A DNA stretch of 64,000 nt from an uncultured Gemmatimonadaceae bacterium (GCA_963829055.1 CAWHHI010000016.1:672001-736000); one strand, 5' to 3'. Shown: positions 1 to 63,492, counted from the stretch's first letter. Numbers and translations are program-made. Notes: a model not told the origin generated them from the letters alone.

Positions 1-981
1 TGTCTCGCGCTGTTCGGCAACCAGTCGCGCGTAGCCATCGCGCACGCCGCGGTCACTCGTGTCGACATCGATCGTCGCGCCAGACTCTGGATCCACGAGG
101 CGCGCGAGCCCGATGTCGGGCAGCGTCTCCTCGCTCGGATCCTCGATCGTCACCGCGACGACGTCGTGCTGCTGCGCCGCGAGCTTGAGCGGACGCTCGA
201 GGTGTTCGGAGAAGAAATCCGACACGAGAAAGATGATCGCCTTCTGCCGCAGCATGCCACGCATGTACTCGAGCGCGCCGGCGATGTCCGTGCCGCGCCC
301 CTCGGGCTCGTGCACGAGCAGGTCGCGGATGACGCGGAGCACGTGACGACGCCCCTTCTTCGGCGGCACGACATGCTCGACGCGGTCGGTGAACAGCATG
401 ACACCGACGCGATCGTTGTTCCGCACGGCGGACATGGCGAGTACGGCACCGAGCTCGGTGGCGAGCTCGCTCTTGAACCGCCTAACGGTGCCGAATCGCT
501 CGGACCCGGAGAGGTCGACCGCGAGCATGACGGTGAGCTCACGCTCTTCGATGTAGCGCTTCACGAACGGACGCCGCATGCGCGCCGTCACGTTCCAGTC
601 GATGGAGCGCACCTCGTCGCCAGGCTGATACTCCCGCACCTCCGCGAACTCCATTCCCTGCCCCTTGAACACGGAGCGGTACTCGCCGCTGAACACCGAG
701 TTCACGAGACCGCGCGTGCGAAGCTCGATGAGCTTCACCTGCTTGAGCACTTCGGGCGGGACGCCGGCGACGACCTTCTGTCGCGCCGCATCAGGCTCCG
801 CTCCGCGACGGGAACGGGTAACGGGGAACCGGGAACCGATGGCCAACGGCGCCGTCGGCGGCGTACGCAGCGCATGCCTCGCCCGCGCCGGCGTCTCGAA
901 CGCTACCTGCGACGCCTTCCCCCGTTCCCCGTTCCCGTCCGCCCGCTGATCGCGGGCACCCGCCCGTTCCCTGTCTGTCAT
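1..981 (-). CDS. DUF58 domain protein (MoxR-associated), runs off the left edge
   Basis: Hand translation from ATG 981, which overlaps the moxR stop: ...EVLKQVKLIELRTRGLVNSVFSGEYRSVFKGQGMEFAEVREYQPGDEVRSIDWNVTAR...EERELTVMLAVDLSGS; directly downstream of moxR. Confidence 0.9.
   Translation of the reverse strand, partial: MTDRERAGARDQRADGNGERGKASQVAFETPARARHALRTPPTAPLAIGSRFPVTRSRRGAEPDAARQKVVAGVPPEVLKQVKLIELRTRGLVNSVFSGEYRSVFKGQGMEFAEVREYQPGDEVRSIDWNVTARMRRPFVKRYIEERELTVMLAVDLSGSERFGTVRRFKSELATELGAVLAMSAVRNNDRVGVMLFTDRVEHVVPPKKGRRHVLRVIRDLLVHEPEGRGTDIAGALEYMRGMLRQKAIIFLVSDFFSEHLERPLKLAAQQHDVVAVTIEDPSEETLPDIGLARLVDPESGATIDVDTSDRGVRDGYARLVAEQRET
810..936. repeat. Two inverted arrays of 7-bp tandem repeats (GGGAACS) in the 5' part of the DUF58 gene
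   Basis: GGGAACG GGTAACG GGGAACC GGGAACC at 810-837; CCTTCCC c CGTTCCC CGTTCCC at 915-936. Confidence 0.75.
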
Positions 982-1962
982 GGACTTTCGATCTTTCCGA
1001 GAATCTTGGCCACGATGTCGTCGCTCGTGACCTCTTCGGCCTCGGCTTCGTACGTCGTGAGCACGCGATGACGGAGCACGTCAGGAGCGATCGACTTCAC
1101 ATCGTCCGGAGTCACGAACGTGCGTCCGCGGAGGAACGCGTGCGCACGCGAGGCCTGCGCCAATGCGATCGTCGCGCGCGGGCTGGCTCCGAACTCGATG
1201 AGCGGCGCGAGCTCCTTGAGACCCGACTCCGCCGGTTCACGCGTCGCATGCACGATCTCGACGATGTAATCGACGATCCGCTCGTCCATGTACAGCTCGG
1301 AAATGCGGTGCCGTGCGTCCATGATCGCGAGCGGCGACGCGACGTGCTGCAACCGAGATCGGTTCGCCGCCAGCCATGCGACGCATGATCTCCTTCTCTT
1401 CGTCGCGCGACGGGTAGCCGACGCGGAGCTTGAGCATGAAGCGGTCGACCTGCGCTTCGGGCAGCGGGTACGTACCCTCCTGCTCGATGGGATTTTGCGT
1501 CGCCAACACGAGGAACGGCTCGTCGAGCTTGAACGTCTGGCCGCCGAGCGTGACCTGCTTCTCCTGCATGGCCTCGAGCAGCGCAGCCTGCACTTTCGCC
1601 GGCGCACGGTTGATTTCGTCGGCGAGCACGATGTTCGCGAAGATCGGGCCCTTCTTCACGGAGAACTGTCCCGTGGACTGGTCGAACACCTGGGTGCCTA
1701 ACACGTCCGCGGGAAGCAGATCCGGCGTGAACTGAATACGCTGGAAGCTCGTATCGATCGTTTCAGCGAGCGTGCGCACGGTCAGCGTTTTCGCGAGTCC
1801 CGGAACGCCCTCGAGCAACACGTGTCCGCCAGTCAGAAGGCTGATCAACAGCCGCTCGACCATGTATTCCTGCCCGACGACGCGACGCCCCACCTGACGC
1901 ATTACGCCCTGAACGAGCGCCATGTCCGCCTGCGAGGAGACCTGTGTTGCCGCTGTTGCCAC
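978..1962 (-). CDS. moxR: MoxR family AAA+ ATPase (one apparent frameshift near 1351)
   Basis: [13 protein letters not shown]alker [58 protein letters not shown]-terminus [16 protein letters not shown] lies in the second frame; GTG 1962 after GGAG. Confidence 0.92.
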
Positions 1963-2138
1963 GTGCACACTCCATGGAAATGGGCCCAGTGCGGCGCGAG
2001 TTCGTCGCGTGAGCCCGCTGATTCAAGTTCAGGACCGAAGCCGTGCCTGCGCCAGATAGGCCGCAGGCCGGTCTTCAGAGTATACACGAAACCAGTGATT
2101 CGGCTCCGCGAGTCACGACGAATCGCTACCGCGAATCG

Positions 2139-3029
2139 CTACCGCGGCTTTCTCGGTACCCGCCGTTCGGGTGGCCGGGGGCGCGGCGCCCGCTCATCCG
2201 ACGATCCATCACGCGCTCGATCGTGCGGCACATCACGTTTCGCAGCCGAGCGGCGAGGCCGGTCACGGCGGACGGGTCGGGTTTTTTCCGGACTCAGCCC
2301 GAGTGGCCTTCCGAGGAGTGACTCGAGCTCATGCCGCTCGCGACTCGAGAGCGCGCGCGTCGCGCCGCTCGGCAACGGTCCGAGCACCACGGGACCGAAT
2401 CGCACGCGCACGAGTCGCTCGACTTCGAGGCCCAGCGCCTCGCACAGGCGACGCACCTCGCGGTTTTTCCCTTCCGCGATCGTGAGCTCGAGCTCGGACG
2501 TGCGATTCCCCATCTGTCGCACTTCCACCACCGATGGCCGGACGAACCCGTCTTCGAGCTCTACGCCACGGCGCGCTTCAGCAGCCGCGACGCGCACAGG
2601 TCCCCGCACGGTCGCGACGTAGGTCCGCTCGATCTCGCTGCTCGGGTGCGTGAGCAGGTGCGCCGCGTCGCCATCGGTCGTGAGCAGCAACACGCCTTCG
2701 GTGAGATAGTCGAGGCGGCCAACGTACGTGAGCCCGGGAGTGTTGGGCACCATGTCGAACACGGTGCGCCGACCCTCTGGATCGGACCGCGTCGTGACCA
2801 CACCCGGCGGCTTGTTGAACACGATCCATTCGTACGTCGACGCTGGCGGTGGTAGCTCCTTGCCATCGACGCTGATCCGGTCCTTGGTGGGATCGACCGC
2901 CTGTCCGGTTCGCGCCACGACGCCATTCACGAGCACGCGGCCGTTCGCCACCAACTCCTCCGCCTTGCGGCGCGACGCGATGCCCGCACGAGCGAGCGCG
3001 CGGTGAATTCGCATCGGCTCGTTGCTCAC
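2139..3029 (-). CDS. rluB: rRNA pseudouridine synthase, RsuA/RluB family
   Basis: S4 domain ([17 protein letters not shown]), catalytic VGRLD motif, EGKNREVRR; scpA-scpB-rluB synteny. Confidence 0.9.
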
Positions 3030-3592
3030 GTGGTCGGTGCCGGTTCGGCCGTCGCCGGCGGAGTCACGCTGCGCAGCGCGATCGCGAGCTCGTCGCCCCG
3101 TGGCAACTCCTCGAGATGCCGCAGCGCGAACTGCTCGAGGAAGATCGGCGTCGTCCCATACAGGAGCGGCCTGCCCACGCCTTCGGCGCGGCCAACGACG
3201 TCGATGAGCCCACGCTCGAGAAGCGACTTGAGGACACTCCCGACGGCGACACCGCGAATCTCCTCGATCTCGGCTCGGCCGATGGGCTGACGGTACGCGA
3301 TGATTGCCAGCGTCTCGAGCGACGCACCCGACAGCCGGTGCGGACGCGCCGCAAGCTGTGCGCGTTCGATCGCCTCCGTGTACTCGGCGCGCGTGAGAAT
3401 CTGCCAGCCGCCGCCGACGTCCACCAACTCGACACCGTGTCCGGCAGTGTCGTATGTCTCACGCAATTCATCGAGCGCGGACTGCAGGGCCGCAGGCGAT
3501 GCCTCCGAGTCGAGTGCTGCGAGCTCGTCGAGCGGAATGGGGCGTGCGCTCGCGAAGAGCGCGGCTTCAAGCAACCTGGCTAGCGGATTCAC
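3026..3592 (-). CDS. scpB: SMC-Scp complex subunit ScpB
   Basis: [48 protein letters not shown]. Confidence 0.95.
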
Positions 3593-7173: not shown

Positions 7174-7860
7174 TCACTCCTCTCGACTGCCCGGCAGGGG
7201 GCAGCCTGGATAGATCTCGCCGGGAAACGCTCTCGACCTCGCCGCCTCGAGCGCTCGAACCTCATCCACGCCTAACGTCTGCACTCGGCCGAGTAGCCGA
7301 GCGGTCAACAAAATTTTCGCCGTGTGCTCGAGGCTCTCCATGCGCTGATGCGCGACGAGCAGCGAGGCACCAACGGTTGTCGCTCCATGATTCGCCATCA
7401 AGAACGCGTCGTGCTGTGCAACATACGGCTCGAACGCATCCGCTAACGCAGTCGTGCCGGGCGTCGCATACGGAACCAGCGGCACCCAGCCAACCTGATA
7501 AATGATCTCCGGTAACACGCACGCCGAGAACGACTCGCCCGCAACGGCGAAGCCTGTCGCCGTCGGCGGATGCGCGTGGACCACGGCCTGCACGTCAGGG
7601 CGTCGCTGGTAGATACGCAGGTGCACGGCCACTTCGGACGAGGCCTTCTGCGCTCCGCGCCGACGCTGACCGTCGAGCGAGAGCTCGACCAGGTCCTCCT
7701 CGGTCACGTCCACCTTCGACATCCCGGAGGGTGTCACGAGCACCCGGTCTCCCGGGAGCCGTACCGACACGTTGCCGTCGGGCCCGGCGATCAGCCCGCG
7801 CTCGTACAGGCGCTTGCAGACTCGCACGATTTCCCGCCGTACCGGCAACGACCCGTACAC
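7174..7860 (-). CDS. Class II aldolase/adducin family protein
   Basis: DGNVSVR, VTPSG, SSEVAVHLRIY, AVVHAHPP, LMANHG; start placed at GTG 7860. Confidence 0.92.
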   Translation of the reverse strand: MYGSLPVRREIVRVCKRLYERGLIAGPDGNVSVRLPGDRVLVTPSGMSKVDVTEEDLVELSLDGQRRRGAQKASSEVAVHLRIYQRRPDVQAVVHAHPPTATGFAVAGESFSACVLPEIIYQVGWVPLVPYATPGTTALADAFEPYVAQHDAFLMANHGATTVGASLLVAHQRMESLEHTAKILLTARLLGRVQTLGVDEVRALEAARSRAFPGEIYPGCPLPGSREE

Positions 7861-7865
7861 GCTCG

Positions 7866-9230
7866 TTACCCCGCCGCCTGATGGACGATTCTGCCGCCGA
7901 CAATGGTACACATCACAACACCCTGGAGCGTGTGACCCGAGTACGGGCTGTTCCGGCCCTTCGAGACGAAGTTCGCCGCGTCGACTTTCCACTCGCGCGT
8001 GGGGTCGAAGACCGTCACGTCGGCGACTGCCCCGCGCTGGAGCGAGCCACCGGGTAACCCGAACGTACGCGCCGGCGACACGGACATCCGCTGGATGAGC
8101 GTGGGGAGGTCGATGATCCCGGGCTTCACGAGCCACTTCACCACGACTGCCAGGGCAGTCTCCAGCCCGACGATGCCGTTCGGTGCGTCGGAGAATTCCC
8201 GCTCCTTCTCGTCGTAGTGATGTGGCGCGTGGTCCGTTGCCACGAGATCGATGGTGCCGTCGCGCACCGCCTCGCGAATCGCCTCGACGTCCTCTTCCGT
8301 GCGGAGCGGCGGGTTCATCTTCGCATTCGTGTTGTACCCGTTCACCTCGTTCTCGGTCAGCGAGAGATGATGCGGGCAGGCTTCCGCGGTGACGCGGATG
8401 CCTCGCTCCTTCCCCCACCGAATGAGCTCCACGGAGCCCTTCGTGCTCATGTGACAGAGGTGCACGTGTCCACCGGTGCGGCGCGCGAGGAGGATGTCGC
8501 GGATGACCATGATCTCTTCGGCTTCCGCCGGGATGCCCTTGAGACCAAGCCGTGCGCTGACGATCCCTTCGTTCATCGCGCCGCCCGCCGCGAGCGTCGG
8601 CTCTTCGCAGTGGTCGGCGACCGGAATGCCGAACGTCCGCGCGTACTCGAGCGCCGTTCGCATGAGGTGCGCGCTCGCGACAGGCCTCCCGTCGTCGCTG
8701 ACGGCGACCGCGCCTGCACCGACCATCTCGCCGAATTCGGCCAGGGCTTCGCCCTTCTGGCCTAACGAGATGGCGCCGATGGGATGCACCCGTGCGGCAT
8801 TCGCCATCTGGCCCTGTCGAAGCACGAACCCGACCGCGGCCTGATTGTCCGTGACTGGCTGCGTGTTAGGCATCGCGCAGACGGCCGTGAACCCACCCAC
8901 GGCCGCAGCACGCGCGCCGGTCGCAATGGTCTCGACGTCTTCACGGCCGGGTTCGCGCAGATGGCAGTGCACGTCGATGAACCCGGGCGAGACGACGAGT
9001 CCCGCGCAGTCGATGACGCGAACGTCGTCGCCGTACGACGCTCCTGCCGCCGTTTCGAACGCGCTCGGTCTTCCCGTCCTCGAGAATCGAGGTCCCCTGT
9101 GGCATCGAGGTTCTGCGACGGGTCGATGACTCGCCCGCCGCGCAACACCGTCCTGCGCGCGTCGCCTTTCCGGTCTCCGCTGACCGCTTCCCCGTTCCCG
9201 GTTCCCGCTTTCCCGCTCGCGATCCGTCAC
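7866..9230 (-). CDS. pyrC: Dihydroorotase (compensating indels near the 5' end)
   Basis: [33 protein letters not shown]; the expected N-terminal LRGGRVIDP and ILEDGK appear in the other two frames (about 9150-9060). Confidence 0.95.
9186..9214. repeat. 7-bp tandem repeats at the pyrC 5' end
   Basis: GCTTCCC CGTTCCC GGTTCCC GCTTTCCC, same unit as in the DUF58 gene. Confidence 0.65.
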
Positions 9231-10846: not shown

Positions 10847-11668
10847 CTAGCGGCGCCCGCCCTTCTCGGCCGCGTGCGACATGGGCCGCAGATACGGGTT
10901 CGGCACGTTCAAGCGCGTCGCGGGATCACTGCCGCGAAGTCGCGCCGCGAGTGCCCTTCCCGGGCGCTCGGGCCCGCCGTCCGCGTGAATGACTCGCAAC
11001 TGTATCTCTCGATCAATACCTGGGCGCGAGCGGCCCCCAGCCGGGGACTCGTCGCTCAACGTGGTCGAGCTCTGGCCATCCTCGCGAGCGACGACGCGCA
11101 CCAACTCGAGATCCGCGAAGCGCGCGAGCGCCACGTTCCTGCGGTCGCCGAATTCCGCCGTCGATTCGGCGTGCTTGTTTCGCCTGATCGCGGCGATCAC
11201 CATGGCCGTCGTTCGCATGAGCATGACGACACCCGCATACGCCGCGACATCGGCGACGTTCAGCACGATGCCCGCACCGTCGGCACGCTGCACCGCGATG
11301 AAATCGACCACGCCAGCCGGGGACAGTAGCAGACTCACGAGATTGCCGATCGCGCCGCCGGCAATCAGGCCTAACGCGGCGGACGACCGATCGTCGATGC
11401 GGGCCAGATCCCGCGCGACCGGGATGATCAGCAGCAGCGCCCCGAGCGTGAGCGCGAGGCTGACCTCGAAGGTGTAGTTGCCGAGGGTGAGTCCAAAAGC
11501 CCCTTTGTCATTGTGGACGACGCCGAAGCGCACGAGGCTCGAAACACTCGGTTCGAGAGTGCCGACCCACAGCAGTGCGACCTGCTTGGTCATGAGGTCC
11601 CCGAGCGCAACGAGCGTCGCGACACGAGCGAGCGGTATCAACGGCGAGCGGCGCGGCAGTCCCTGCAT
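10847..11668 (-). CDS. Signal peptidase II (LspA)-like protein with C-terminal extension
   Basis: DLMTK, HNDKGAFG, GGAIGNL, VVDFI and NVAD motifs; four TM segments. Confidence 0.8.
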   Translation of the reverse strand: MQGLPRRSPLIPLARVATLVALGDLMTKQVALLWVGTLEPSVSSLVRFGVVHNDKGAFGLTLGNYTFEVSLALTLGALLLIIPVARDLARIDDRSSAALGLIAGGAIGNLVSLLLSPAGVVDFIAVQRADGAGIVLNVADVAAYAGVVMLMRTTAMVIAAIRRNKHAESTAEFGDRRNVALARFADLELVRVVAREDGQSSTTLSDESPAGGRSRPGIDREIQLRVIHADGGPERPGRALAARLRGSDPATRLNVPNPYLRPMSHAAEKGGRR

Positions 11669-14094: not shown

Positions 14095-14175
14095 CCGTCC
14101 CTCCACGCGTTAGGCGCTGCGATCGCGCAGCACCACGCGTCGCGGATAGTCGGGGCCGCATCGATCAACGGCGCG

Positions 14176-17804: not shown

Positions 17805-18164
17805 TGCCGCCTCGCTGCGAGGTATGCGCTCATCGGGCGCCGGCGTCGGCGGCTGTCCAATCGAATCGGAACGACACACCCAACTTCGGTGCGGAGAATG
17901 GAGTGAGTCAAGCTCGCCCGCAGCTCACTTTCGAATGCTCGAGCCGGCCTACCAAGGAACGTCAGCGAACGTCGACCGGCGCCTAACGCGGCACGGTCCC
18001 GCGCGCCACGAAGAGAACATCGCCGCGCTTCGCCGCCGTGATCGCCGCCGCCGCGACGCAGGCATACTGGAACTCCTCAGCCGTGCCCATCTCGCGTTCG
18101 GTCGCCTCGAACCCGACGTCGCGTAGAAACACACGCACCCATTCGAGTAACTCTGCCCGGTCGA

Positions 18165-19263: not shown

Positions 19264-19338
19264 GCGCGTGAGTGATCAACGTGCCGCACGCCAGACCGTT
19301 CGTCGTCGGATGTTGCCTAACGTGTCGTCGGCCAGCCG

Positions 19339-48593: not shown

Positions 48594-48685
48594 TAGTCGC
48601 GGTCACCACGACAGGCTGAAAGTCTCAGCAGCGCGCCAGGCCGGTCTCGTCTCCTCGGTCGCGCCGGAACCCGGTCGTTAGGCAT

Positions 48686-50217: not shown

Positions 50218-50310
50218 GTCGCCCTCCATGAGTCTCAGGTGAATAGCCAGAAGGAGTCTGAGTCGGTGTGAATACCTCCCGATCGTTAGGCTGGAAACGA
50301 TGGGACGGTG

Positions 50311-51479: not shown

Positions 51480-52974
51480 GGTAACGCCTCCCTGTCGGGC
51501 TTCCGCTTCGGGATCGTCACCATGATCGAGACGATCGCCGCCACCACCATCAGCAGATTGATCGCCAGCGCGAAGAACGCCGCCTGGCGCACGGCGAGAT
51601 TGTCCTGCCGGCCGATATAGCTGATCACACCCTCGATCCACGCGATCGAGCGGTTGCTGCCGCTCAGCGCCGTGAAGACAGTGGCCGAGATGGCGACACC
51701 GAACGACGCGCCTAACGATGACGCCATCTTGTAAATCCCGGCACCACTACCGGCCTGGTGTCGGGCAACGCGGACAGCGCCGCGTCCGTGGACGGCGTCG
51801 CGTAGAACGCGAGGCCGAGGCCGAACAACGTGAAGCCCACGACCGCGAGGACCTTGTAGGTGCCAAGCGTTAGGTTGGTCGGCAACAGACACGCGATGGA
51901 GGCGCCCACGATCAGCGATCCCCAGATCATCGGCCGCCGCGGACCGAACCGCTGCAGCAGCTTCTCGCCAACTCGGATGAACGCCACGATGGCGATGGCA
52001 TAGCCGATCGTCAGGAACCCGGCCTCCTGCGCCGTCATCCCGCCCCCGACCTGCACCAGCATCATCGCCACGATCAGGATGCCGGCAGTTGCGTTGAGCA
52101 GGAAGTTCGAGATCGTGGCGCCGGTGTAGGTCATGTTCCGGAACAGCTTGAAGTCGACGAAGCCGTTGGGGTTGTTGGACTCGATTCGGAAGAACAGCAC
52201 GGCGAAGATGACGCTGGCCGCGAGGAGTCCCAGCGTCGGCAGGCTGGTCCACCCCATGGTCCCGCCCTGAGTGGCCAACACCTGGAGCGAGACCATCATG
52301 ACCATGAAAGTCAGGACTCCCGCGGTGTCGAACTTGTACGCCCCGGTCGACTCGGCTTTGCTCTCGGGCGTTCCGGCTACCATGAGCATTCCGACCAGCG
52401 AGATCGCCGCCGCGGCGAAGAAGATCCAGCGCCAACCGATGTTCGCGGCCATGAGGCCCCCGAAGAGCGCAGCAAAGCCAGAACCGCCCCAGGAGCCTAT
52501 GGACCAGAGCGAGACCGCCCGCTGGCGCGCCGCCCCATGCCAGTACGCCTTCACGAGGGCGAGGCTGGCCGACATGATGAACGCGCCTGACAGTCCCTGA
52601 AGGATTCGACCGAACATCAGGAACGCCGAGGCAAGGCTGCCGGATGGCGCGAACCCGACCAGCAGCGAACCGATGATGCTGAGGACGAAGCCGATCTGCA
52701 CCATCTTCACGCGGCCGAAGCGGTCGGCCAGGCTGCCGACGACGACGATGAAAATGCCGGAGAACAGCGCCGTGATCGACACGGCGATGTTCATCACGCT
52801 GGTCTCGATCCCGAGATCATCCGCCATCACCGGCGAGATGTTCAGCGTCGTCTGCGCAAACAGCCAGAACGCGAGAACGCCGAAGATGATGCCGAACAGG
52901 ACACGATCATTCCCGACGAACCGCGCGCTTTCGTTCATCTGGGACGGTTGCGTGGCCATCGCCGCCTCTTTCAT
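51476..52974 (-). CDS. MFS transporter, NorB/NorC-like (frameshift near 51750)
   Basis: LAFWLFAQT, LADRFGRVK, WSIGSWGGSG, FYATPSTD, GIYKMASSLG. Confidence 0.88.
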
Positions 52975-53008: not shown

Positions 53009-54685
53009 TCAGCGCGGCGGAGTCACGACGGGCCGCGTGCGAAAGCGAAAGGGCTCGTCCAGCGCGCGCGCCAATCGCACATCGCGTTGGTAGATGTCGG
53101 GCCGGAAGTTCACGCGTCCCGCATCGTCGACCCATGCCGTCCAGTAGAGCAGCAGCACCGGCACTGGGCGCGGCAGATGAACGGTGCGAGTCCGCCGCGT
53201 TCCCGTCGCGCGGGCAGTCGAGTCCGAATTCCAATTCGCGTCGCCGAGAAGAAGCTGCGCGAGCTCGAACGGTCGCTCCACCCTGATGCATCCGGAGCTG
53301 AACGCGCGCGCGGACTCGTCGAATAGCTCGCGACTGGGCGTGTCGTGCAGGTACACGAGATAACGATTCGGGAACATGAACTTGATCAGGCCGAGCGAGT
53401 TCTGCGGCCCGGGGTCCTGGCGCAGTGTGAAGGGAAACGAGGACGCCGAGTATGCCGACCAGTCGATGCGCGACGCGTCCACGGGGCGACCGGAGCGGTT
53501 GAGGACCCGCATTCCTTCGGGCAGCGCGCGGACTCCTCCCCGCTTGAGGCGGGGGAGCATGTCGCGCGCGAGGATACCTGGCGGTACCGTCCACGTGGGA
53601 TTGAAAACGAGGTACGTGATCGAATCCCGAAAGATCGGAGTGCGCCGGTAGGGCAATCCCACGACGGCGCGGCTCCGCCACACGGTGCGCCCATCCCGCA
53701 CGTAGGCAACACTGTATCCCGCGATGTTGACGACGACGAAGGTGCCGTCCAGGTGATGCAGCACCCAGCGGCCGCGCTCGAGGTTGAGGCGGATCTGCTG
53801 GATGCGCTTTCCCACTGGCACGTTCATAGCCGAGCGCGTCCCCTCGCCAAGCACTCCGTCATCGGCGAGGCCAACGCGCGCCTGAAAGCTGCGCACTGCG
53901 GTGGCGAGTGTCGAATCGTAGCGCGTCGAGGTGTCGTGCCCTTGCCTAACGAGGTCACCAGTCGCCTCGAGGCGGCGCTTCAACACCGGCACGCGTGCGT
54001 CAGCGACGCCGACGCGAAAGGCCGGCCCCGCGGGCACTAGCGGCCAGCCGCCGGCGGCCTCGATCTGTCGATAGCGCGCCAGTTCACGCTTGAGCCCAGC
54101 GTAGACTTGGTGGCCGGGCTTCTCGCGCTCCAGCGCCTGATACACGTCGCCGGCGTCGAGCATCCGCTGGATATCCAAGGCCGGCTCGAAACCGCGAATC
54201 TGGCGTGCCATATTCCAGTTTGGATCCACACGTTCGGGATCGACCTTGCCGAACATCAGGTGGTAGCCGAGCCGCACCAGTGCGTCCGTGAGCAGCAGGT
54301 CGTAATCGGCCAGCAACGCGGCGTCCGACTGCCCACTCGCCGCAACCTCGCCGCGGAGGCGCTCGAGGAGCGCTTGATGGTAATCGCGTGGATCGAGCCC
54401 GTCGGCCGCGGCGTCAGCAATGGCGCGGACGAGTTGCTCGATCGTGCGCGCGTCGCGCCACGCCGGGCGGAATCCGCGCCGCTCGTAGAGGTCGGGGAGG
54501 ACGATGACGGACGCGATGCGACTTCCTCTGACGTCGAGCCGACCGGTCTCGCGCAGCGCCTCGACGCGACTCCTCAGCACCTCGCGGATGGCATCGTCCT
54601 GCGCCTCCGCACTCGCCGCCATGCAGTGGAGCGAGAGCATGACGCCAGCGCACAGCGTCGCACGGCGGAGACCATCAGTAGTCAT
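53009..54685 (-). CDS. L,D-transpeptidase, YcbB/LdtD-like, with peptidoglycan-binding domain
   Basis: Signal peptide; AVRSFQ..GLADDG; FNPTW.VP; YLHDTP...RAFSSGCIRV. Confidence 0.93.
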   Translation of the reverse strand: MTTDGLRRATLCAGVMLSLHCMAASAEAQDDAIREVLRSRVEALRETGRLDVRGSRIASVIVLPDLYERRGFRPAWRDARTIEQLVRAIADAAADGLDPRDYHQALLERLRGEVAASGQSDAALLADYDLLLTDALVRLGYHLMFGKVDPERVDPNWNMARQIRGFEPALDIQRMLDAGDVYQALEREKPGHQVYAGLKRELARYRQIEAAGGWPLVPAGPAFRVGVADARVPVLKRRLEATGDLVRQGHDTSTRYDSTLATAVRSFQARVGLADDGVLGEGTRSAMNVPVGKRIQQIRLNLERGRWVLHHLDGTFVVVNIAGYSVAYVRDGRTVWRSRAVVGLPYRRTPIFRDSITYLVFNPTWTVPPGILARDMLPRLKRGGVRALPEGMRVLNRSGRPVDASRIDWSAYSASSFPFTLRQDPGPQNSLGLIKFMFPNRYLVYLHDTPSRELFDESARAFSSGCIRVERPFELAQLLLGDANWNSDSTARATGTRRTRTVHLPRPVPVLLLYWTAWVDDAGRVNFRPDIYQRDVRLARALDEPFRFRTRPVVTPPR

Positions 54686-55203: not shown

Positions 55204-55871
55204 GGGTGTATCCTCCGAATCGAAGGAGGTGTGGTGGTGCCTAACGACGAAACCCTGCGGATCACGTCGGTCGTTCGGCGCAGCCAGGTGCCGATCCGCT
55301 GGAACGGCCGTCGGGCGAGTGTCCACGCGGGTCGGCGTGGTCGTCGAACCGGCTCGCGTGCCCGAGCCGCCACCACGCCAGCCGCTTCGGTCATCTGTTC
55401 TGTACGCGGCGCCGGGTCAGGGCGCCATATCGCCCACCGGACACCGGACTTTCGCAGCGCGCGGTAAAGCAGATACGCCACGCCACGCAGCTCGAACTCG
55501 GTCATTGGCGACGGGACGGCGAGTTCGAACCCGAACGAGTCACCCGTGCGGCTGTGGCTGCCCGGCCTGATGAGGGTGGCGATCGGACGATTGCTGGCGA
55601 GGATGACGTCTGTCTCTCCAGCGTCGCTCCGCTCGAGCGCCAGCGGCTCAATGTCAACAGGAACGAGTCGCGTGCCGTGTGTGCGCGAGAGACGGCGCGC
55701 CAGCGTCCGATGCGCAACCCAGGCGGCATGCGTCGCCTCGGTCTCGTCCCCGAACCCTCGGAACCCAATCGTGTCGCCGACGATCCAACCCACCGCCCTG
55801 TCGGCGTCCACCAGGTCCATCTCGAACGGAGGCGGATGGGCGAGCATGTCACGCATAAGCTGGGTAGTCAT
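55200..55871 (-). CDS. Hypothetical protein, paralog 3
   Basis: GGGAG SD; MTTQL...GFRGFGDETEATHAAWVAHRT...SFGFEL...AYLLYRALRKSGVRW. Confidence 0.88.
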   Translation of the reverse strand: MTTQLMRDMLAHPPPFEMDLVDADRAVGWIVGDTIGFRGFGDETEATHAAWVAHRTLARRLSRTHGTRLVPVDIEPLALERSDAGETDVILASNRPIATLIRPGSHSRTGDSFGFELAVPSPMTEFELRGVAYLLYRALRKSGVRWAIWRPDPAPRTEQMTEAAGVVAARAREPVRRPRRPAWTLARRPFQRIGTWLRRTTDVIRRVSSLGTTTPPSIRRIHP

Positions 55872-57044: not shown

Positions 57045-58587
57045 CGTGGCGGTCTCGCCGTGCCGACGGACGGCGCCACGTTAGGCATGGCCGCATCGGG
57101 CGTCAGTTGCTTCGCGGCGATGCGCGACAGCCGTACGGCCGGCTCGATGGCCAGCCCCAGGCCTAACGTGCACGCCGCCAACAGCGCCACGCCGGCAACC
57201 ATCGCGGGCGGAATAGGGCGAGCCGCCTGCCCCTCGCGCGCTCGCGGTCGCCAGAACGCCTGCGTCCACAGCATGCTCATCGAATAGAGCGTCAGGAAAC
57301 CGGTGACCAGGGCGACCGCGACCAGCCATCCCGCTCCGGACGTCCCGCTGCGAAAGGCGGCGTCGATCACGAGCGCCTTCGCCCAGAAACCAGAGAGCGG
57401 CGGGACCCCGGAGATCGAGAGCGCGAGCGCGGCGAACAGCACGGAGAAACGCGGGTGCTCGCGAATCAGGCCACCGAGGGCACGGAGATCGTAGCCTCCG
57501 CTGGCCCGCGCGATCGCGCCGGCACCAAGGAAGAGACCCGTCTGCACGAGCATCGTATGCATTGTATAGAAGATGGCGGCGGCGCTCCCCTGCCAGGATG
57601 CGAGCGCCAGCCCCATCATCAGATAGGCTACCTGCCCGACGACGTGGAACGCCAACAGCCGGCGCACGTCCACCTGGGCGATCGCGGCGAGCACGCTGAC
57701 GAGCATCGTCGCCGTCGCGAGCAGCGCGAAGAGCGGCGGCAATCCCGGACACGACCGCCGTGCCCGTTCCGACGCCGAACACGGCAACGAAGATGCGAAG
57801 GCAGGCGTAGAAGGCGACCTTCGTCAGCAAACCGGCGAGTGCCGCCGCGACGCTGATCGGCGCCGTGTGATACGATGCAGGCAGCCAGAAGAACAGCGGA
57901 AAGAGGCCCGCCTTCAGCACCAACCCGGTGAGCAACAGGTACGCGGCGACGGTCGAGGTCACCGAGGGCACACGACCCGCGAGCGTGGTGGCCAGGTGCG
58001 TCAGGTCCAGCGTGCCCGCCTCACCGTACAGCAGCCCGATACCCACGAGCATGAACGTCGCTCCCATCATGCTCATGGCCGCATAACGAAGCGCGCCGTC
58101 GATCTGGGCGCGACCGCCGATCGAGCGTCATGAGTCCGAGGGCCGTGACGAGCATCAGCTCGAACCAGACGTACAGGTTGAAGAGGTCGCCCGTCAGGAA
58201 CGCACCGTTGACCGCCGCGAGCATCCCGAGGAAGAGCGGGTCGAAACCGGATCGTCTGCGCCGGGCGCGCACGTCGGCGCGCGCGAAGATCGCGACCGCG
58301 AGCGCAACGATGCCGGCGGCCGTGCACAGTGCCCCGCTCAGCGCGTCGGCCACGAACGTCACGCCGAACGGCGTGCCCCACCCGCCGAACTTCATCACGA
58401 TGACGTCGCCGCCCCGCGTCCGCGCGAGCAACAGCGCGGACGCGACGAGCATCGCCGCGACCGCCACTTCCATCACGCTGCGCTGCAGCGCCGGCCAGCG
58501 GCGGACGACTACCGTCAGCGCGGCCGCGCCGAGTGGGATGATGACGGGCCATATCGCGAGGCCGTTCGCGAGCGCATCAGTGCTCAA
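57041..58587 (-). CDS. mrpD: Mrp antiporter subunit D (frameshifts near 58110 and 57745)
   Basis: GDLFNLYVWFE, KAGLFPLFFWLPASY, GLLTKV, GVPPLSGFWAK over three frames. Confidence 0.9.
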
Positions 58588-58962: not shown

Positions 58963-61704
58963 GACTCCACTTCCCTCGTTAGGCCGAAGAGGAAGGCGAG
59001 CACGGTTCCCAGCACCGCGAGGTAGACGCCGAGGTCGAAGAGAAGCGTCGTGCCCTGCTTGACGTGCACGCCGAGCACGGTCACCTCGATCCAGATGTGC
59101 CGCAGGTAATCGCCGTACACCACGAGCCCGGGGAGTCCGCTCGCCACCGCGAGCAGCAGGCCGCCGCCGACGAGCGTCAGCGGATGGTACCGCAGCTTCT
59201 CACGCGCCCGATCCACCCCGTGGGTGAGCGCGACGATCGCGAAGGCGAGGGCGGCCATGAGACCGCCCACGAAACCGCCACCGATCTCGTTGTGGCCGCG
59301 AAGCAGCACGATCACCGACAGCGCGGCGAGCAACCAGAAGAAGAGCGGGCTGGCGAACGCGAGGACGAACACCGAGCGTCGCGCGCCGCCGGACCTGTCC
59401 TCGAGAGGCAGACGCGGCCCGAGCAGCGACCACGCGATGACGGCCGAAAGCGCGATCACGGTGGTCTCGCCTAACGTGTCGAAGCCCCGGAAGTCCACGA
59501 GGATGACGTTCACGACGTTCCGGCCGAACGCCTCGAGGTAGCTGCGCGCGCCGAAGAACGCAGAGACTTCCGTGTTCTGCGGCGCGGCGCTCATGTCGAG
59601 CAGCGCGACGAAGAGCAGCACGGAGAGCACCGTGGCCACCGCGGCGTCACGCCCTCGCGCGCCACGCGAGCGGGTCGTCGGAGCGCTGAGCGGCAGCACG
59701 AGCAAGGCGGCGGTGAGCAGCACGACGACCAGAGACTCCACCGCGAACTGCGTGAGCGCCAGGTCGGGCGCGCCGTTCATGAGGAACGTGAGCGCGGCGA
59801 CGAGCCCCGTCAGGCCGGTCGCGATCATCGCCGCGAGGAGCGATCGGGCGCGGATGGCGGCGAGACCACCGGCGAGTCCGACCAGCGCCAGTGCCGCCGG
59901 CCCTACGCGCATCGCACCCAGATCGGCCGGCACTCGCGGCCCGCGGCCCGTCGCGACGAGCCCCCAGACCACGAATGCCGCCGCGGCAACGAAGATGACC
60001 CCGAGGTGGTCACGCAGGTCCCCCTGCTGCAGGCGCGCTGGCGATGCCCCGAGAAATCGCGTAGAGGCGCCGACGGAGCGCGTCGTAGGCATGCTCCACA
60101 TCGTACCGGCCGACCCAGATGATGCGCAGTCGATGGTGGATGGGCACCCAGAAGGCGAGAATCAACGCGCCGATGCCGACCACGGCGGTGCTGAGCAGGA
60201 GCATCGGCGTCACGCCGTGCCACAGCGCGACTCTCGCCTCCACCGGCCTGCCGTAGATGGCTGCCACGGCCGGCCGCAACACCACACGGTCCACCCACGT
60301 CGGCTCCAGGCTGATGACCAGCCCGAGGAGCGCCAGGAGCATCGGCCCCACGAGCAGCCCGACCACTTCCCGGTGCCTAACGCTTTCAACCCGCCCGGCG
60401 CCCATGAAGAACGGCCGCAGCGTGACGATGCCGGCGACGCCCACCATCACGGCATTGACGAGCACCGCCACGGCCATTGGCAGCGCATCCCAGGAGCTCT
60501 GGATCTGTGCCTCGAACAGAAACTCCTTGGAGATGAATCCGAGGAAGGGCGGCAGCCCGGCCATCGAGAGGCTCGCGAGGACGGACGCGACCGCCGTGAC
60601 GGGCAGGAACCGCCAGAGGCCGCCCATCTGGCGCAGCTTGGTCAGGCCGGTCGCGTGAATCACCGTCCCCGCACAGAAGAACAGCGTCGCCTTGTACAGC
60701 GCGTGGGCGAGGAGAAACCCGATCGTCGCGACGCTGGCCATGGGTCCATCGAGCCCCACGAGCATGACGAGGATGCCGAGCGAAGCGATCGTAGAGTACG
60801 CGAGCACCGTCTTGTAGTTCTCGGCGCGGATGGCCTGGAACGCCGCGACCAGCATCGTGACCATCGCCACCGTGATGAGCATGTCACGGCCGCCGCGCAC
60901 GGAGCCGATGACGGGCTCGAAGCGCGCCAGCAGGTAGATGCCCAGCTTCACCATCGTCGCCGAGTGCAGGTACGCCGAGGCGGGCGTGGGCGCCTGCATG
61001 GCGTTAGGCAGCCAGAAGTGAAACGGGAACTGGGCCGACTTGGTGAAGGCGCCGAGGAAGATCCCCGCGAGGATCGGGACGATCCAGGGACTCCGCGCCA
61101 GCTCGGGCGCCCGCGCGACCGCGCCGCTCAGCGAATAGCTGCCCAGCGTCACGCCGATGAGGAGGATCGCGGCCAGCAGCGCGAGCCCGCCACCGGCGGT
61201 GACATGCAACGCCATCAGCGCCGATCGCCGCGCTGAAGGACTGTCGACGTCGAAGCCGATGAGCAGGAACGAGAACAGGCTGGTCGCCTCCCAGAAGAGG
61301 AACAGGACGACCAGGTTGTCGGCGAGCACGGTGCCCAGCATCGCCGTCATGAAGAACAGGATCAGGGCGAGGAACCGGGCCCGGTCCGACGGCGCGCGCT
61401 CGACGAGGTAGGCGTCGGCGTAGATCACGACGAGCGCGCCGACGCCGGTGACGAGCAGGCAGAAGAGAAAGGCGAAGCCGTCCAGCCGCAGCGTGAACTC
61501 GACGCCGAGCGATGGAGCCCAGGCCAGCCGCTCCGTCACGGTCTGTCCCGCCTCGATCGTCCCGTGGAAGCCGAGGAAGCCGACGAAGAGCGCCGCGGGC
61601 ACGAGCGCGAGCAGCCAGCCCACTCCTCGGCGGCAGAGGAGTCGACCGACGGGCAACGACAGGGCGCTAGCGACCGACGACGTGGCGAGCAAGACCGCGA
61701 TCAT
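58959..61704 (-). CDS. mrpA: Mrp antiporter fused subunit A/B (frameshift near 60035)
   Basis: FTKSAQFPFHFWLPNAMQAPTPASAYLHSATMVK; APDLALTQ, NVVNVILVDFRGFDTLGE; MrpB motif RGHNEIGGGFVGG. Confidence 0.93.
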
Positions 61705-62333: not shown

Positions 62334-62479
62334 GCGGGAAAACTGACAGATGCAAAACGCCGCCGCTACGGGTTGCGTAGTCGGCGGCGTTTTGACTCGC
62401 GATCGAGCATCGCCTCGAAGTCCTCGAGGACGCCTCGGGGACAGCGCGCGGTCGCGGCGTCGCGCTCGAATGCATCACC

Positions 62480-63329
62480 GTGGGCCTTGATGGCATGCTC
62501 GCGCTCGAGATCGCCGGCAACTACCCCACGTTGGCTACCGCTGGGCGTGGCAATCGGAGTCGTCGCGGGTACACTGGGCCTGTGGCGGGCGCTCATTCTC
62601 GGCGGGTATGCACCGTTCGCGTTACTTCCCACCGTCGTGCTCGTGCTCGGCGGCATCCTCGCACCGATCTTCGCGTGGACGGTCCACCTCGCGCAGCGCG
62701 GACACGCGCAGGCGGCGGCGCTGCGACGAAGTCAAGCCTTCCTGGCCGAGGCACAGCGTCTCAGTCGCACTGGCAGCTTTGCCTGGCGTGTGGCGACCGA
62801 CGAGATCACGCTGTCAGACGAGGTCTATCGCATCTTTCAGCTGGACCGCGCGGTGCCCGTGACACTCGCGACGATCGACACGCGCGTTCACGCGGATGAC
62901 ATCCCCGGCCTGCACGAGATCATTGGCGGAGCGCGCATCGCAGGCAGCGATTTCGAGTACGAGCACCGGATGCTGATGCCGGACCAGTCGATCAAGTACC
63001 TCCACCTGGTCGCGCACGCGGCGCGCGACCAGGCTGGCCGGTTGGAGTACATCGGGGCGATTCAGGACGTGACGCAGCGACGCGTCTCGGAAGAGGCACT
63101 CTCGAAGGCTCGGTCCGAGCTCGCCCACGTGGCCCGGGTGACGACGCTCGGCGCGCTGACGGCGTCCATCGCGCACGAGGTCAATCAGCCGCTCTCGGGC
63201 ATTGTCACCAACGCCAGCACGTGCCTCCGGATGCTGGCCGCCGACCCGCCTAACGTCGAAGGGGCGCGCGAAACCGCAGGGAAGGACCGGCAGAGTCGGT
63301 CGACCTGGAAGAAGCAACACCCCGCCTGA
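62480..63329 (+). pseudogene. Truncated TM-PAS sensor histidine kinase lacking the ATPase domain
   Basis: TM helices, PAS (AQRLSRTGSF.W...VHADD), SIAHEVNQPL H-box; similarity ends near 63278; 5' end unclear. Confidence 0.8.
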
Positions 63330-63350
63330 CGTCGGAACGTCAAGCGGAGC

Positions 63351-63405
63351 TGACGGATGGAGCGAGATTCGAACTCGCGGTACGCTTCACGTACATACTC
63401 ATTCC
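63351..63405 (-). mobile_element. att-like site: isolated 3' half of a tRNA-Ser gene
   Basis: Minus strand GTACG-TGAAG-CGTAC variable arm, GCGAG-TTCGAAT-CTCGC T arm, TCCATCC acceptor strand, G discriminator; no 5' half upstream. Confidence 0.75.
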
Positions 63406-63492
63406 GCGGACTTGCGGGAGTTGCTCAAAACGGCGAGGCGGCGAGCTTGTCGATCGACGTTAGGCGGTTGATTCTGAAGGCTTACTCCCGCG

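Follow-up and report, generated by a model that had tools for sequence, protein, structure and literature searches.

A lineage-specific 'self word' saturates the chromosome of a Gemmatimonadaceae soil bacterium

The DUS of Neisseriaceae and the USS of Pasteurellaceae are 'self tags' by which bacteria such as Neisseria and Haemophilus choose DNA for uptake. About half of their copies reportedly lie in terminators, often as inverted pairs (10.1101/2025.10.24.684340), and a mismatch profile with a steep drop and a drained two-mismatch class is reported for DUES (PMC1939737). In the Gemmatimonadaceae soil bacterium analyzed here, GCCTAACG occurs about once per 1.5 kb, in genes and spacers and on both strands, saturating the chromosome as a lineage-specific 'self word'. 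A literature search found no word of this type described in print for the lineage, in agreement with a preliminary description of the same DNA.

The stretch of DNA that was analyzed (64,000 nucleotides, hereafter the window) contains 59 exact copies of CCTAACG/CGTTAGG, 31 on the plus and 28 on the minus strand, compared to 2.51 on average and at most 8 in dinucleotide-preserving shuffles (Table 1). The full GCCTAACG accounts for 51 of these (1.04 expected and at most 3 in the shuffles), as the base 5' of CCTAACG is G in 51 cases, A in 7, and T in 1, giving 58 copies of RCCTAACG. The preliminary description had the 51 copies and all of its example coordinates right, as well as the frames xCG TTA GGC, GTT AGG, and CCT AAC in the dihydroorotase-like, DUF58, and MrpA-like genes and the stop codons at 33272, 36943, and 41556 inside the word, and fell one short for CCTAACG (58, with 27 on the minus strand) and for RCCTAACG (57). 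Across the 7.78 Mb genome, GCCTAACG was found 5004 times (0.64 copies per kb), ranking first among all 8-mers by z-score for over-representation; Markov models of order 0–3 predict 131–297 copies (257 at order 3). The density is 0.48–0.80 copies per kb on each of the 20 contigs. Within 3147 high-confidence genes, 2409 copies were counted, compared to 97.7 +/- 7.5 after synonymous-codon shuffling and 44.2 +/- 6.6 after shuffling of codon order. The two strands carry 2457 and 2547 copies, and no replichore polarity is seen: 267 leading-strand and 341 lagging-strand copies on contig C16, where the terminus is visible, and 840/899 and 1332/1330 when sorted by the sign of the GC skew.

Table 1. Copies of GCCTAACG and its variants in the window, with gene context, reading frame, and state in relatives
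Word	Position	Strand	Context
GCCTAACG	480..487	+	DUF58/VWA gene, antisense; C GTT AGG C
GCCTAACG	7270..7277	+	class II aldolase gene, antisense; CG TTA GGC
GCCTAACG	8760..8767	+	dihydroorotase-like gene, antisense; CG TTA GGC; exact in 3/6 congeners, core CCTAACG in 6/6
GCCTAACG	11369..11376	+	signal peptidase II gene, antisense; Ala-Leu-Gly = GCG TTA GGC; same residues encoded without the word in 5 congeners
GCCTAACG	12381..12388	-	no Pfam-supported gene; present in 5/5 aligned congeners
GCCTAACG	14108..14115	-	no Pfam-supported gene
variant ACCTAACG	14963..14970	-	PD40-repeat gene, sense; A CCT AAC G
GCCTAACG	16119..16126	+	no Pfam-supported gene
GCCTAACG	16853..16860	+	Ser/Thr kinase gene, antisense; CG TTA GGC
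GCCTAACG	17981..17988	+	no Pfam-supported gene
GCCTAACG	19315..19322	+	no Pfam-supported gene
GCCTAACG	20420..20427	-	TAA stop (GCC TAA CG) of MacB/FtsX permease ORF 20422-23169; overlaps ECF sigma ORF
GCCTAACG	20922..20929	+	MacB/FtsX gene, antisense; C GTT AGG C; congeners GTC AGG or GTC CGG
GCCTAACG	21970..21977	+	MacB/FtsX gene, antisense; CG TTA GGC; present in 3/5 congeners
variant ACCTAACG	22504..22511	+	MacB/FtsX gene; 4/4 public-run contigs have G at 22504, giving GCCTAACG
GCCTAACG	24626..24633	+	no Pfam-supported gene
variant ACCTAACG	25109..25116	+	no Pfam-supported gene
variant TCCTAACG	25142..25149	+	no Pfam-supported gene
GCCTAACG	25322..25329	+	no Pfam-supported gene
GCCTAACG	27245..27252	-	no Pfam-supported gene
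GCCTAACG	27349..27356	+	no Pfam-supported gene
GCCTAACG	29752..29759	+	no Pfam-supported gene
GCCTAACG	29946..29953	-	no Pfam-supported gene
GCCTAACG	30193..30200	-	no Pfam-supported gene
GCCTAACG	31458..31465	+	ClC channel gene, antisense; CG TTA GGC
GCCTAACG	33270..33277	-	TAA stop of Usp gene 33272-34258 (minus strand)
GCCTAACG	34009..34016	-	Usp gene, sense; G CCT AAC G
GCCTAACG	34217..34224	-	Usp gene, sense; GC CTA ACG
GCCTAACG	35121..35128	-	glutamate dehydrogenase gene, sense; Arg-Leu-Thr = CGC CTA ACG; same residues with CTC in 3 congeners; spanned by a public-run contig, no difference
GCCTAACG	35770..35777	-	no Pfam-supported gene
GCCTAACG	36938..36945	-	TAG stop (CGT TAG GC) of Usp gene 36401-36943 (plus strand)
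variant ACCTAACG	37358..37365	-	canonical word in run X13 (C at 37365)
GCCTAACG	37483..37490	+	no Pfam-supported gene
GCCTAACG	39629..39636	-	histidine kinase gene, sense; GC CTA ACG
GCCTAACG	40288..40295	-	no Pfam-supported gene
variant ACCTAACG	41551..41558	+	TAA stop of ORF 41041-41556
GCCTAACG	42059..42066	-	Usp gene, sense; GC CTA ACG
GCCTAACG	42868..42875	-	Usp gene, sense; G CCT AAC G
GCCTAACG	43660..43667	-	no Pfam-supported gene
GCCTAACG	43977..43984	+	no Pfam-supported gene
GCCTAACG	45087..45094	-	MarR gene, sense; GC CTA ACG
GCCTAACG	46776..46783	+	Usp gene, sense; G CCT AAC G
GCCTAACG	47718..47725	+	Usp gene, sense; GC CTA ACG
GCCTAACG	48676..48683	-	no Pfam-supported gene
GCCTAACG	50284..50291	-	no Pfam-supported gene
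variant ACCTAACG	50639..50646	-	peptidase M20 gene, sense
GCCTAACG	51337..51344	+	peptidase M20 gene, antisense; C GTT AGG C
GCCTAACG	51710..51717	+	no Pfam-supported gene
variant ACCTAACG	51868..51875	-	MFS transporter gene, sense
GCCTAACG	53944..53951	+	L,D-transpeptidase gene, antisense; C GTT AGG C
GCCTAACG	55239..55246	+	no Pfam-supported gene
GCCTAACG	57079..57086	-	no Pfam-supported gene
GCCTAACG	57161..57168	+	Mrp/Nuo membrane subunit ORF, antisense; C GTT AGG C
GCCTAACG	58977..58984	-	MnhB/MbhDE gene, sense; GC CTA ACG
GCCTAACG	59469..59476	+	MnhB/MbhDE gene, antisense; CG TTA GGC; present in 3/3 congeners
GCCTAACG	60375..60382	+	MrpA-like gene, antisense; C GTT AGG C
GCCTAACG	61002..61009	-	MrpA-like gene, sense; G CCT AAC G
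GCCTAACG	63248..63255	+	PAS-HisKA gene, sense; G CCT AAC G
GCCTAACG	63458..63465	-	no Pfam-supported gene

The word occupies all four stop-free reading frames, stop codons, and spacers. It contains 994 of 1990 TTA codons, a codon that makes up 1.6% of Leu codons, together with 166 of 655 TAA and 125 of 1342 TAG stop codons. Tolerated near-variants are specific (ACCTAACG, 827 copies; GCCTAACA, 435; GCATAACG, 583; CCCTAACG, 428), and with increasing mismatch load the ratio of observed to expected counts runs 16.9, 1.10, 0.87, and then about 1, such that the two-mismatch class is drained. The sequences flanking the copies show no conservation, and the word is therefore not a repeat element; it arises by point substitution, mostly through synonymous codon choice, rather than from an inserted element. 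Compositionally foreign-looking islands lack it: 12 of the 14 motif-free 10-kb windows of the genome rank among the 4% most atypical in composition.

Relatives were then compared. At orthologous sites in congeners (~78% identity), the exact word was found in 28 of 65 site-by-congener comparisons, 2.5 times the 17.3% retention of all 8-mers in the same alignments, and where it was absent from such sites in Pfam-supported genes the amino acids were identical in 19 of 30 cases. The word is not an assembly artifact: six independently assembled congeners carry it at orthologous sites, and several of the window sites are spanned without a difference by contigs of four public runs. Among 401 sampled Gemmatimonadota genomes, abundance of the word is confined to certain genera of a single order, where densities are graded; the density is nil in the other families sampled, and preferences at positions 1 and 8 vary slightly among lineages. 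Genus g46 is split, with ~3500–4100 copies in three genomes and 66 in G293, so that fast gain or loss is needed. In G304, all replicons carry the word, including a 21-kb contig, and secondary replicons have the chromosomal density. Given that the excess withstands a codon-preserving null, extends across the genome and to other assemblies, and lacks replichore polarity, the observation in the preliminary description is confirmed.

By analogy with the described systems, GCCTAACG may be a signal of the DUS/USS type that molecular drive has accumulated, a reading that we hold tentatively. In its favor are the extreme excess, the unconserved flanks, the balance between strands, the specific variants and drained two-mismatch class, the retention in congeners, the lack of the word in foreign-looking DNA, and the graded densities. 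It appears to be the best fit of the three put forward in the preliminary description, the interpretation of which is partly supported by our analysis. A DNA-binding part of the route that imports and recombines the DNA of relatives, putatively a component of a type IV pilus or of the competence machinery, would prefer word-carrying fragments; word-bearing alleles would replace word-less alleles more often than the reverse, and the drive would fill the genome until halted by codon and protein constraints and by redundancy. A second copy beside an existing one would add nothing, which would explain why copies avoid each other at short range: the pair-correlation rises from 0.21 below 100 bp through 0.45 at 100–200 bp and 0.77 at 200–300 bp to ~1 beyond 500 bp. 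This avoidance range of ~300 bp, shorter than expected for kb-sized uptake fragments, counts against uptake, as do the split in g46 and the density on the secondary replicons of G304. The genome encodes ComEC, a secretin, and type IV pilins, but word-poor genomes also have ComEC and pilins (found in 104 and 111, respectively, of the 111 genomes of the family), and these proteins thus do not discriminate. One orphan pilin that was tested is genus-specific.

The same spacing is compatible with an array of sites bound by some abundant protein of the chromosome, a reading also raised in the preliminary description; examples would be a nucleoid organizer, a loader, or a self-marker of a defense or repair system, with natural selection acting on the sites in place of an uptake drive. 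Even spacing and an exclusion below ~300 bp that holds for every relative orientation could be a footprint, and a protein gained or lost would fit the patchy distribution across genera; conservation of sites above background, the presence of the word on every G304 replicon, and its absence from foreign islands also agree. We consider this rather unlikely, however, as selection per site over ~5000 redundant copies should, on population-genetic grounds, be too weak to maintain rare codons like TTA, no candidate protein was found, and the drained two-mismatch class and graded densities resemble the outcome of directional conversion.

An identity missed by the preliminary description is that the word equals the R-box, or crossover core, of integron attC sites in the present genome and in a sister family. 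GCCTAAC(G) and (C)GTTAGGC form the two arms of attC hairpins in the genome's own integron (IntI at C20:208041-208958; cassette array at ~188–207 kb), and the folding z-scores of five of six hairpins are -3.2 to -5.1. Cassette arrays in word-poor genomes of that family share the arms (24 sites in L204 and 20 in L205), and in the oligonucleotide table of PMC2811028 GTTAGGC appears as the core of attI1 in class 1 integrons; a random 8-mer would hold that 7-mer on either strand with a chance of ~2e-4. The identity may be due to chance or to a recognition sequence common to the reader of the word and the integron cassettes, and it counts against a plain uptake model, which does not predict it. These matches would also suit a word read by an integron-type tyrosine recombinase, its copies being isolated R-boxes in present or past use by IntI or a relative, for example as secondary cassette insertion sites or docking sites. 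This is improbable, since just 2 of the 5004 copies have an attC-like signature downstream, inverted pairs spaced as in attC sites are depleted, and conversion of near-matches by substitution is no known action of a recombinase. Published secondary integron sites need only GWT (10.1101/2022.09.11.507474). Moreover, the integrase occurs in word-rich and word-poor genomes alike: IntI scored above the cut-off in word-poor G007, G008, G011, G012, G016, and others, whereas no full-length IntI was found in word-rich G002, G004, and G010, and that of G014 is fragmented.

A repair- or methylation-linked mutational drive, of the kind proposed for cyanobacterial HIP1, would have a sequence-specific methylase or mismatch nuclease convert near-cognates to the word. 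The drained two-mismatch class speaks for it, and an MmeI/Eco57I-type methylase, a class known for asymmetric sites, is fused to an SNF2 helicase at C8:73862-77248. C-to-T variants are rare at positions 2, 3, and 7 (24, 24, and 13 copies), but other CTAA-containing words are also at 0.2–0.4 of expectation, indicating a baseline and no specific depletion. Vsr and C5 methylase were found only in word-poor genomes (in 0 of 7 from the genus, nor in G014, where the word is richest), and very-short-patch repair in E. coli leaves far smaller word excesses. Neither PF01555 nor PF02384 methylases were found in the present 86%-complete genome, and its two candidates do not track the word: the Eco57I-type protein also occurs in word-poor G293 (5/5 handles), and the D12 methylase carries a frameshift in this genome, with none found in G014 or G304. 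The methylation-linked drive raised in the preliminary description is weakened accordingly and seems improbable. Least probable would be a Chi-like signal restraining a helicase-nuclease of the AddAB type, so that marked linear DNA is protected and recombined, giving drive: the word is 8 nt, non-palindromic, and enriched in native DNA, and an AddAB-like gene pair lies at C15:11673-16010, yet known Chi sites are strand-skewed and the leading-strand bias is absent here, and Chi reaches nowhere near this excess. Word-poor G008, G009, G011, G026, and G032 have AddAB-like genes, a search of G001, G002, G005, and G010 found none, and RecC was not found.

Returning to the uptake-signal reading, the arrangement of the copies differs from that of DUS and USS: close inverted pairs are depleted, with opposite-orientation neighbors less than 60 bp apart in 13 of 4982 gaps, and this depletion counts against the reading. 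The mismatch-load profile has the shape given for DUES in PMC1939737, and in running through genes and spacers on both strands GCCTAACG is much like the 'self tags' of Neisseria and Haemophilus.

Exact copies of the heptamer CCTAACG/CGTTAGG number 59 in the window (31 on the plus strand and 28 on the minus strand), compared with 2.5 in dinucleotide-preserving shuffles, where the maximum was 8. The base at the first position is G in 51 of these copies, A in 7, and T in 1, and the octamer GCCTAACG, hereafter the word, is present in 51 copies where 1.0 is expected (maximum 3). The preliminary description, a count by hand, had listed example positions, placed the motif in all three reading frames, and attributed to it the stop codons of three genes, all of which held up on recheck. 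The source genome is an assembly of 7.78 Mb in 20 contigs with 66–67% GC and 86% completeness, and its PyrB finds its closest named relatives among Gemmatimonadaceae and Gemmatimonadales MAGs. It contains 5004 copies of the word (2457 forward and 2547 reverse; 0.64 per kb), with every contig at 0.48–0.80 copies per kb. Markov models of orders 0, 1, 2, and 3 predict 297, 131, 102, and 257 copies; the excess was placed at 17- to 38-fold above expectation, and the word has the highest z-score among all 8-mers of the genome. Within 3147 high-confidence genes, 2409 copies were found, compared with 97.7 ± 7.5 when synonymous codons were shuffled and 44.2 ± 6.6 when codon order was shuffled (n = 10 each). 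Because these shuffles retain the rare codons supplied by the word itself, both nulls are conservative. An artefact, codon bias, and a repeat element were all excluded as the source of the word.

The flanks of the word are at background composition, save for a slight bias at −1 (towards C or T) and another at +8, and the word is thus not the core of a longer repeat. A dispersed repeat of the REP or MITE type was rejected on the same flanks and because the copies lie in frame within conserved genes, with no indels. Four one-off variants exceed expectation by 4- to 13-fold, namely ACCTAACG (827 copies), GCCTAACA (435), GCATAACG (583), and CCCTAACG (428); variants at positions 2 and 7, and those with C3 changed to T or G, stand at 0.2–0.6, the baseline of other CTAA-containing words. 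Grouped by mismatch load, the observed/expected ratio is 16.9 at zero, 1.10 at one, and 0.87 at two mismatches, and about 1 beyond that. The deficit at two mismatches, approximately 6,000–10,000 words, has a magnitude similar to that of the surplus of perfect words and one-off variants, which fits creation of the word by point substitution from near-matches. For the DNA uptake sequences of Neisseriaceae (DUS) and Pasteurellaceae (USS), PMC1939737 describes an excess that declines steeply yet gradually as mismatches accumulate, and the word behaves in the same manner. A large share of DUS and USS is located in transcription terminators, often as inverted pairs, as stated in 10.1101/2025.10.24.684340. 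No terminator-type habit of inverted pairing was seen for the word, as judged from neighbour spacing over 4982 gaps, among which only 13 separate opposite-orientation neighbours by less than 60 bp; convergent and divergent pairs closer than 100 bp occur at 0.17–0.20 of expectation. Copies instead avoid each other, with a pair-correlation of 0.21 below 100 bp, 0.45 at 100–200 bp, and 0.77 at 200–300 bp, rising through about 0.9 (up to 500 bp) to about 1 further out, equally in direct, convergent, and divergent pairs. Gaps shorter than 200 bp make up 4.3% of the total, compared with 12.2 ± 0.4% under a null retaining 10-kb density, and no periodicity was seen up to 3 kb in this spacing analysis.

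Chi and KOPS/AIMS words are strongly skewed to the leading strand. The replication terminus on contig C16, which carries the window at positions 672001-736000, was placed near 540 kb from the cumulative GC-skew maximum and a gene-strand switch, and on the two arms the word occurs 267 times on the leading and 341 times on the lagging strand (44:56), with control words reaching 80–85%. When 137 windows of 50 kb were sorted by the sign of their GC skew, the strand counts were 840/899 and 1332/1330, and the correlation of orientation with GC skew was −0.19. A Chi- or KOPS-like polarity was rejected, as there is no strong orientation bias relative to the direction of replication; the mild lagging tilt goes in the direction that we infer from an antisense frame preference combined with leading-strand genes. 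A match to an Xer-like recombinase also lies by the terminus.

The word leaves a deep imprint on coding sequence. In the high-confidence genes, 994 of 1990 TTA codons fall inside the word, as do 439 of 2358 CTA, 657 of 5332 CCT, and 319 of 3604 AGG codons, together with 166 of 655 TAA and 125 of 1342 TAG stop codons. The frames most used are xCG TTA GGC (1264 copies), xxG CCT AAC G (873), xGC CTA ACG (594), and xxC GTT AGG C (421), with the two stop-containing frames accounting for 15 copies together. Codon usage is thus distorted by the word, which supplies half of TTA codons and a quarter of TAA stops, and the word therefore matters for gene prediction and for codon-based inference in this Gemmatimonadaceae group. 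A further 1496 copies lie outside called genes and 332 on gene boundaries, shares that are approximate because the gene caller, our own, is crude (72% coding, 28% uncalled, genes missed) and the assembly contains frameshifts. Reading-frame breaks divide an MmeI/Eco57I-type methylase with a SNF2 helicase, a D12 methylase, a secretin, and an Mrp subunit, and intact methylase ORFs in relatives span 1024–1402 aa, which suggests assembly indel errors or pseudogenes; such splits explain the low coding fraction. Separately, a 15-kb part of the window contains five genes with universal-stress-protein (Usp) domains, among which lie a LuxR-type response regulator, a histidine kinase, a PAS-LuxR regulator, and a MarR gene, in what looks like a stress-response neighbourhood.

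Conservation was followed at 20 word sites of the window in six congeners, which are 77–79% identical in aligned DNA. In 65 site-by-genome comparisons, non-independent as the congeners are kin, 28 (43%) retained the exact word and 37 retained the CCTAAC core, against a background identity of 17.3% across all 8-mers of the same alignments; at 12 of the 20 sites at least one congener has the exact word. Fifty-four of the comparisons lie inside Pfam-supported genes: 21 retain the word, 19 lack it and encode the same amino acids, 11 lack it and encode other amino acids, and 3 are gapped. The Ala-Leu-Gly of signal peptidase, for example, is encoded here as GCG TTA GGC and in five congeners as GCC CTC GGC, GCC CTT GGC, or GCG CTC GGG. 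These comparisons indicate that within genes the word is largely written by codon choice. Among strains, contigs from four public runs of different studies cover word sites unchanged, and two of the 40 differences listed (of 855) convert a ACCTAACG of the source genome to the canonical word, at 22504 in all four runs and at 37365 in one. Near-identical DNA of the species (window 20001–40000) was found in 20 public runs from 17 studies, labelled as rhizosphere, soil, and freshwater-sediment metagenomes, and the organism is therefore widespread.

All seven genomes of the genus carry 2501–5112 copies, G014 from another genus has 6360 in 5.1 Mb, and several further genera are intermediate. Among 401 Gemmatimonadota genomes, abundance of the word is confined to one order, where it extends at graded densities over three families and at least 15 genera (for example g46, g49, g44, g45, g51, g38, and g77). 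Families f4–f12 show none, and in most genomes the word is rarer than its reversed control. These tallies take in the unpublished genomes G013, G085, G124, and G203, all word-poor, while the unpublished G425 and G449 were counted only in the ComEC and pilin searches, and no claim depends on any unpublished genome. Genus g46 is split, with three genomes at 3479–4141 copies and one, G293, at 66. The complete word-rich genome G304, in four contigs or replicons, has sampled densities of 0.57, 0.53, 0.75, and 0.85 per kb on contigs of 5.3 Mb, 1.1 Mb, 1.0 Mb, and 21 kb. Small lineage differences are apparent: G304 requires G at position 1 (98%), G014 accepts A there (21%) and favours AG downstream of the word, and a further genome, G240, accepts C at position 8 (11 of 51). 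Samples of 100 kb from two word-poor relatives, G008 and G012, showed no alternative hyper-abundant word, and a candidate dialect in G012 turned out to be a 16-bp tandem repeat, ACGAGAACGACTRACN, rather than a dispersed word; short arrays of it recur in that genome. Genomes rich in GCCTAACGA were absent from 401 sampled Verrucomicrobia and from the 138 genomes searched in one order of that phylum, the one containing the least word-poor genome, a sampling that a narrow clade could escape.

Within the source genome the word is depleted from atypical DNA. Fourteen 10-kb windows lack the word where 1.2 are expected, and by tetranucleotide atypicality 12 of these rank in the 96th percentile or higher. 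The average is 3.4 copies per window in the most atypical 5%, compared with approximately 6.5. Some word-free segments are at contig ends and could be mis-joined, and the largest word-free gap represents a foreign island or else a mis-join at a contig end.

These observations require a directional process at the level of DNA that is indifferent to orientation and coding status, can outweigh codon usage at thousands of sites, and operates in some lineages but not in those closely related to them. By analogy, we tentatively favour the molecular drive of uptake sequences akin to DUS and USS, the known mechanism of this kind. Such a drive would account for the mismatch-load profile and the specificity of the variants, and would explain why sites are conserved, why foreign islands lack the word, and why copies avoid one another; it leaves unexplained the lack of terminator pairs, the short range of avoidance, and the identity with the integron core described below. 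The source genome has ComEC, a secretin, a weak ComEA-like (HHH_3) match, and four prepilins. Across 111 genomes of the family, ComEC was detected in 104 and pilins in every one, irrespective of word abundance, and ComEC, pilins, and the integron integrase IntI are uninformative because they are near-universal or uncorrelated with the word. One orphan pilin gene has a full-length match only in the congener G001, its family-wide matches being confined to the N-terminal helix. That the word is instead an array of binding sites selected for a protein is, in our estimation, unlikely; no candidate reader protein emerged from the families searched. PMC7305173 mentions ComEC in soil bacteria in general terms only. 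Searches for literature linking Gemmatimonadetes with uptake sequences, competence, or abundant oligomers returned nothing relevant, and in the literature searched no description of the exact word was found, the best-ranked matches being primers and unrelated oligonucleotides.

The core sites of integrons are named by the consensus sequences RYYYAAC and GTTRRRY. In word-poor genomes of the sister family, the few copies of the word cluster on one strand every 500–650 bp and are the attC sites of cassette arrays, in which GCCTAACGGATCGCGCTTAAGCTGCGG... pairs with ...TGTTAGGC to form a classical imperfect hairpin and to which IntI genes adjoin. Two such arrays, L204 and L205, supply most of the word copies of their genomes. 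The source genome has an integron of its own, with attC sites of the form GCCTAACGC...ACGTTAGGK and at least 12 attC-like sites of 88–126 nt; Rfam gave no match in the integron regions. Judging by the arms of these attC sites, the hyper-abundant word equals the R-box arms of the attC sites of this order, and the attI1 core of class 1 integrons is GTTAGGC, of which only GTT is strictly conserved according to PMC2811028. A random 8-mer would hold that 7-mer on either strand with a chance of approximately 2e-4, before allowing for many comparable motifs. This identity of letters would favour a recombinase-linked role for the word, but we regard that as quite improbable: the attC-like downstream signature accompanies 2 of 5004 copies, attC-like inverted pairs are depleted, and the R''-L''...L'-R' hairpin array was found genome-wide only at C20:188-208 kb. 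IntI exceeds the cut-off in 24 of 41 Gemmatimonadales genomes, some rich and others poor in the word, suggesting that integrons are common in the order, and full-length IntI was not found in the word-rich genomes G002, G004, and G010. Moreover, published genomic insertion sites of cassettes need GWT alone, according to 10.1101/2022.09.11.507474.

Coordinates of the features discussed (contigs are those of the source genome unless another genome is named)
Feature	Location	Strand	Remarks
Cassette array L204	G027:C95:1-20000	one strand	24 attC sites in 20 kb, all starting GCCTAACGG
Cassette array L205	G379:C2:1-20000	one strand	20 attC sites in 20 kb, all starting GCCTAACGG
IntI gene	C20:208041-208958	minus	265.7 bits, barely reaching the cut-off of 265
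Chromosomal integron (L228, L229)	C20:188000-209000		Outside the window; array at ~188-207 kb
Additional attC-like sites	C20:119252, 119425, 173526, 183883, 890463		
Genes split over reading frames	C8:73862-77248, C8:134909-135647, C8:360651-361147; window 57081-58076		
Usp-domain genes and regulators	window 33272-48523		
Orphan pilin gene	C16:947580-948095		
Xer-like recombinase match	C16:541419-541592		
Largest word-free gap	C6:5440-55037		~50 kb, 70-73% GC
Further word-free atypical segments	C6:600000-620000, C11:0-40000, C19:0-10000		
Short ACGAGAACGACTRACN arrays	L144-L146 (G012:C72)		

We consider a drive by repair or methylation very unlikely. Vsr and C5 methylase each occur in 4 of 41 genomes, only word-poor ones, and the Vsr/Dcm model was rejected on this distribution. 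Methylases of families PF01555 and PF02384 had no match in the source genome, its D12 methylase is frameshifted and has no counterpart found in G014 or G304, and an Eco57I-type protein is present in five of five genomes examined, including the word-poor G293; the methylase candidates were rejected as drivers because their presence does not follow word abundance. An unpolarised Chi-like signal is highly improbable, as an AddAB-like pair, although present in the source genome, is uncorrelated with the word across genomes, and RecC was not found.

Returning to uptake-driven accumulation, the coincidence of a putative uptake tag with the integron crossover core may have a reason shared by the import machinery and the cassettes, a proposal that we advance as a long shot. 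DNA-import machinery might have become tuned to the attC R-box, or cassettes might have evolved to bear the host's uptake tag. Cassette DNA, carrying the word twice per attC, would then be favoured for import and be captured, and the same preference acting on homologous DNA would saturate the chromosome by molecular drive. If true, natural transformation would be mechanistically coupled to the traffic of integron cassettes in soil bacteria. The identity could also link two questions, namely what reads hyper-abundant words and how cassettes move between soil bacteria. To our knowledge, two proteobacterial families are the only ones in which a genome-saturating tag is established to accompany sequence-specific DNA uptake. 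An uptake function here would add a third case, in Gemmatimonadota, an abundant and rarely cultured soil phylum, and would mean that self-preferring gene exchange is more widespread; it would also provide a simple marker by which to tell native from foreign DNA in genomes and metagenome bins of Gemmatimonadota, and would open recombination in soil bacteria to experiment.

Among known systems, Chi and KOPS/AIMS resemble the word in being non-palindromic octamers enriched in native chromosomal DNA. The cyanobacterial HIP1, GCGATCGC, is likewise an over-represented and conserved octamer near one per kb; PMC5861425 gives its over-representation as 15- to 300-fold and its function as unsettled, and PMC4390886 ties it to two methylases. 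HIP1 is palindromic, whereas the word is asymmetric, shows no periodicity up to 3 kb, and is not tracked by the methylase families searched; a HIP1-type explanation was rejected on this asymmetry and on the state of the methylases (C5, PF01555, and PF02384 not found, D12 broken). The attC R-box and attI core share identical letters with the word, GCCTAAC/GTTAGGC being the R'' and R' arms in the source genome and the sister family, but copies across the genome are isolated, without a partner arm, L-box, or hairpin, occur in housekeeping genes with no accompanying indels, and show no co-variation with IntI. Compared with DUS and USS, the word belongs to a different phylum, is an 8-mer with no flanking AT-tract, avoids close pairs and shows in its spacing no terminator or inverted-pair habit, coincides with an integron core, and is not tracked by the competence genes found. 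In other respects the word resembles DUS and USS: each is a short non-palindromic word at approximately one per kb, equal on the two strands, found in genes (in preferred frames) and in spacers, arising by point substitution with a steep drop in excess with mismatch load, and rare in foreign DNA. Its recurrence in related species, slightly altered from lineage to lineage, and the presence of competence genes may be further points of resemblance.
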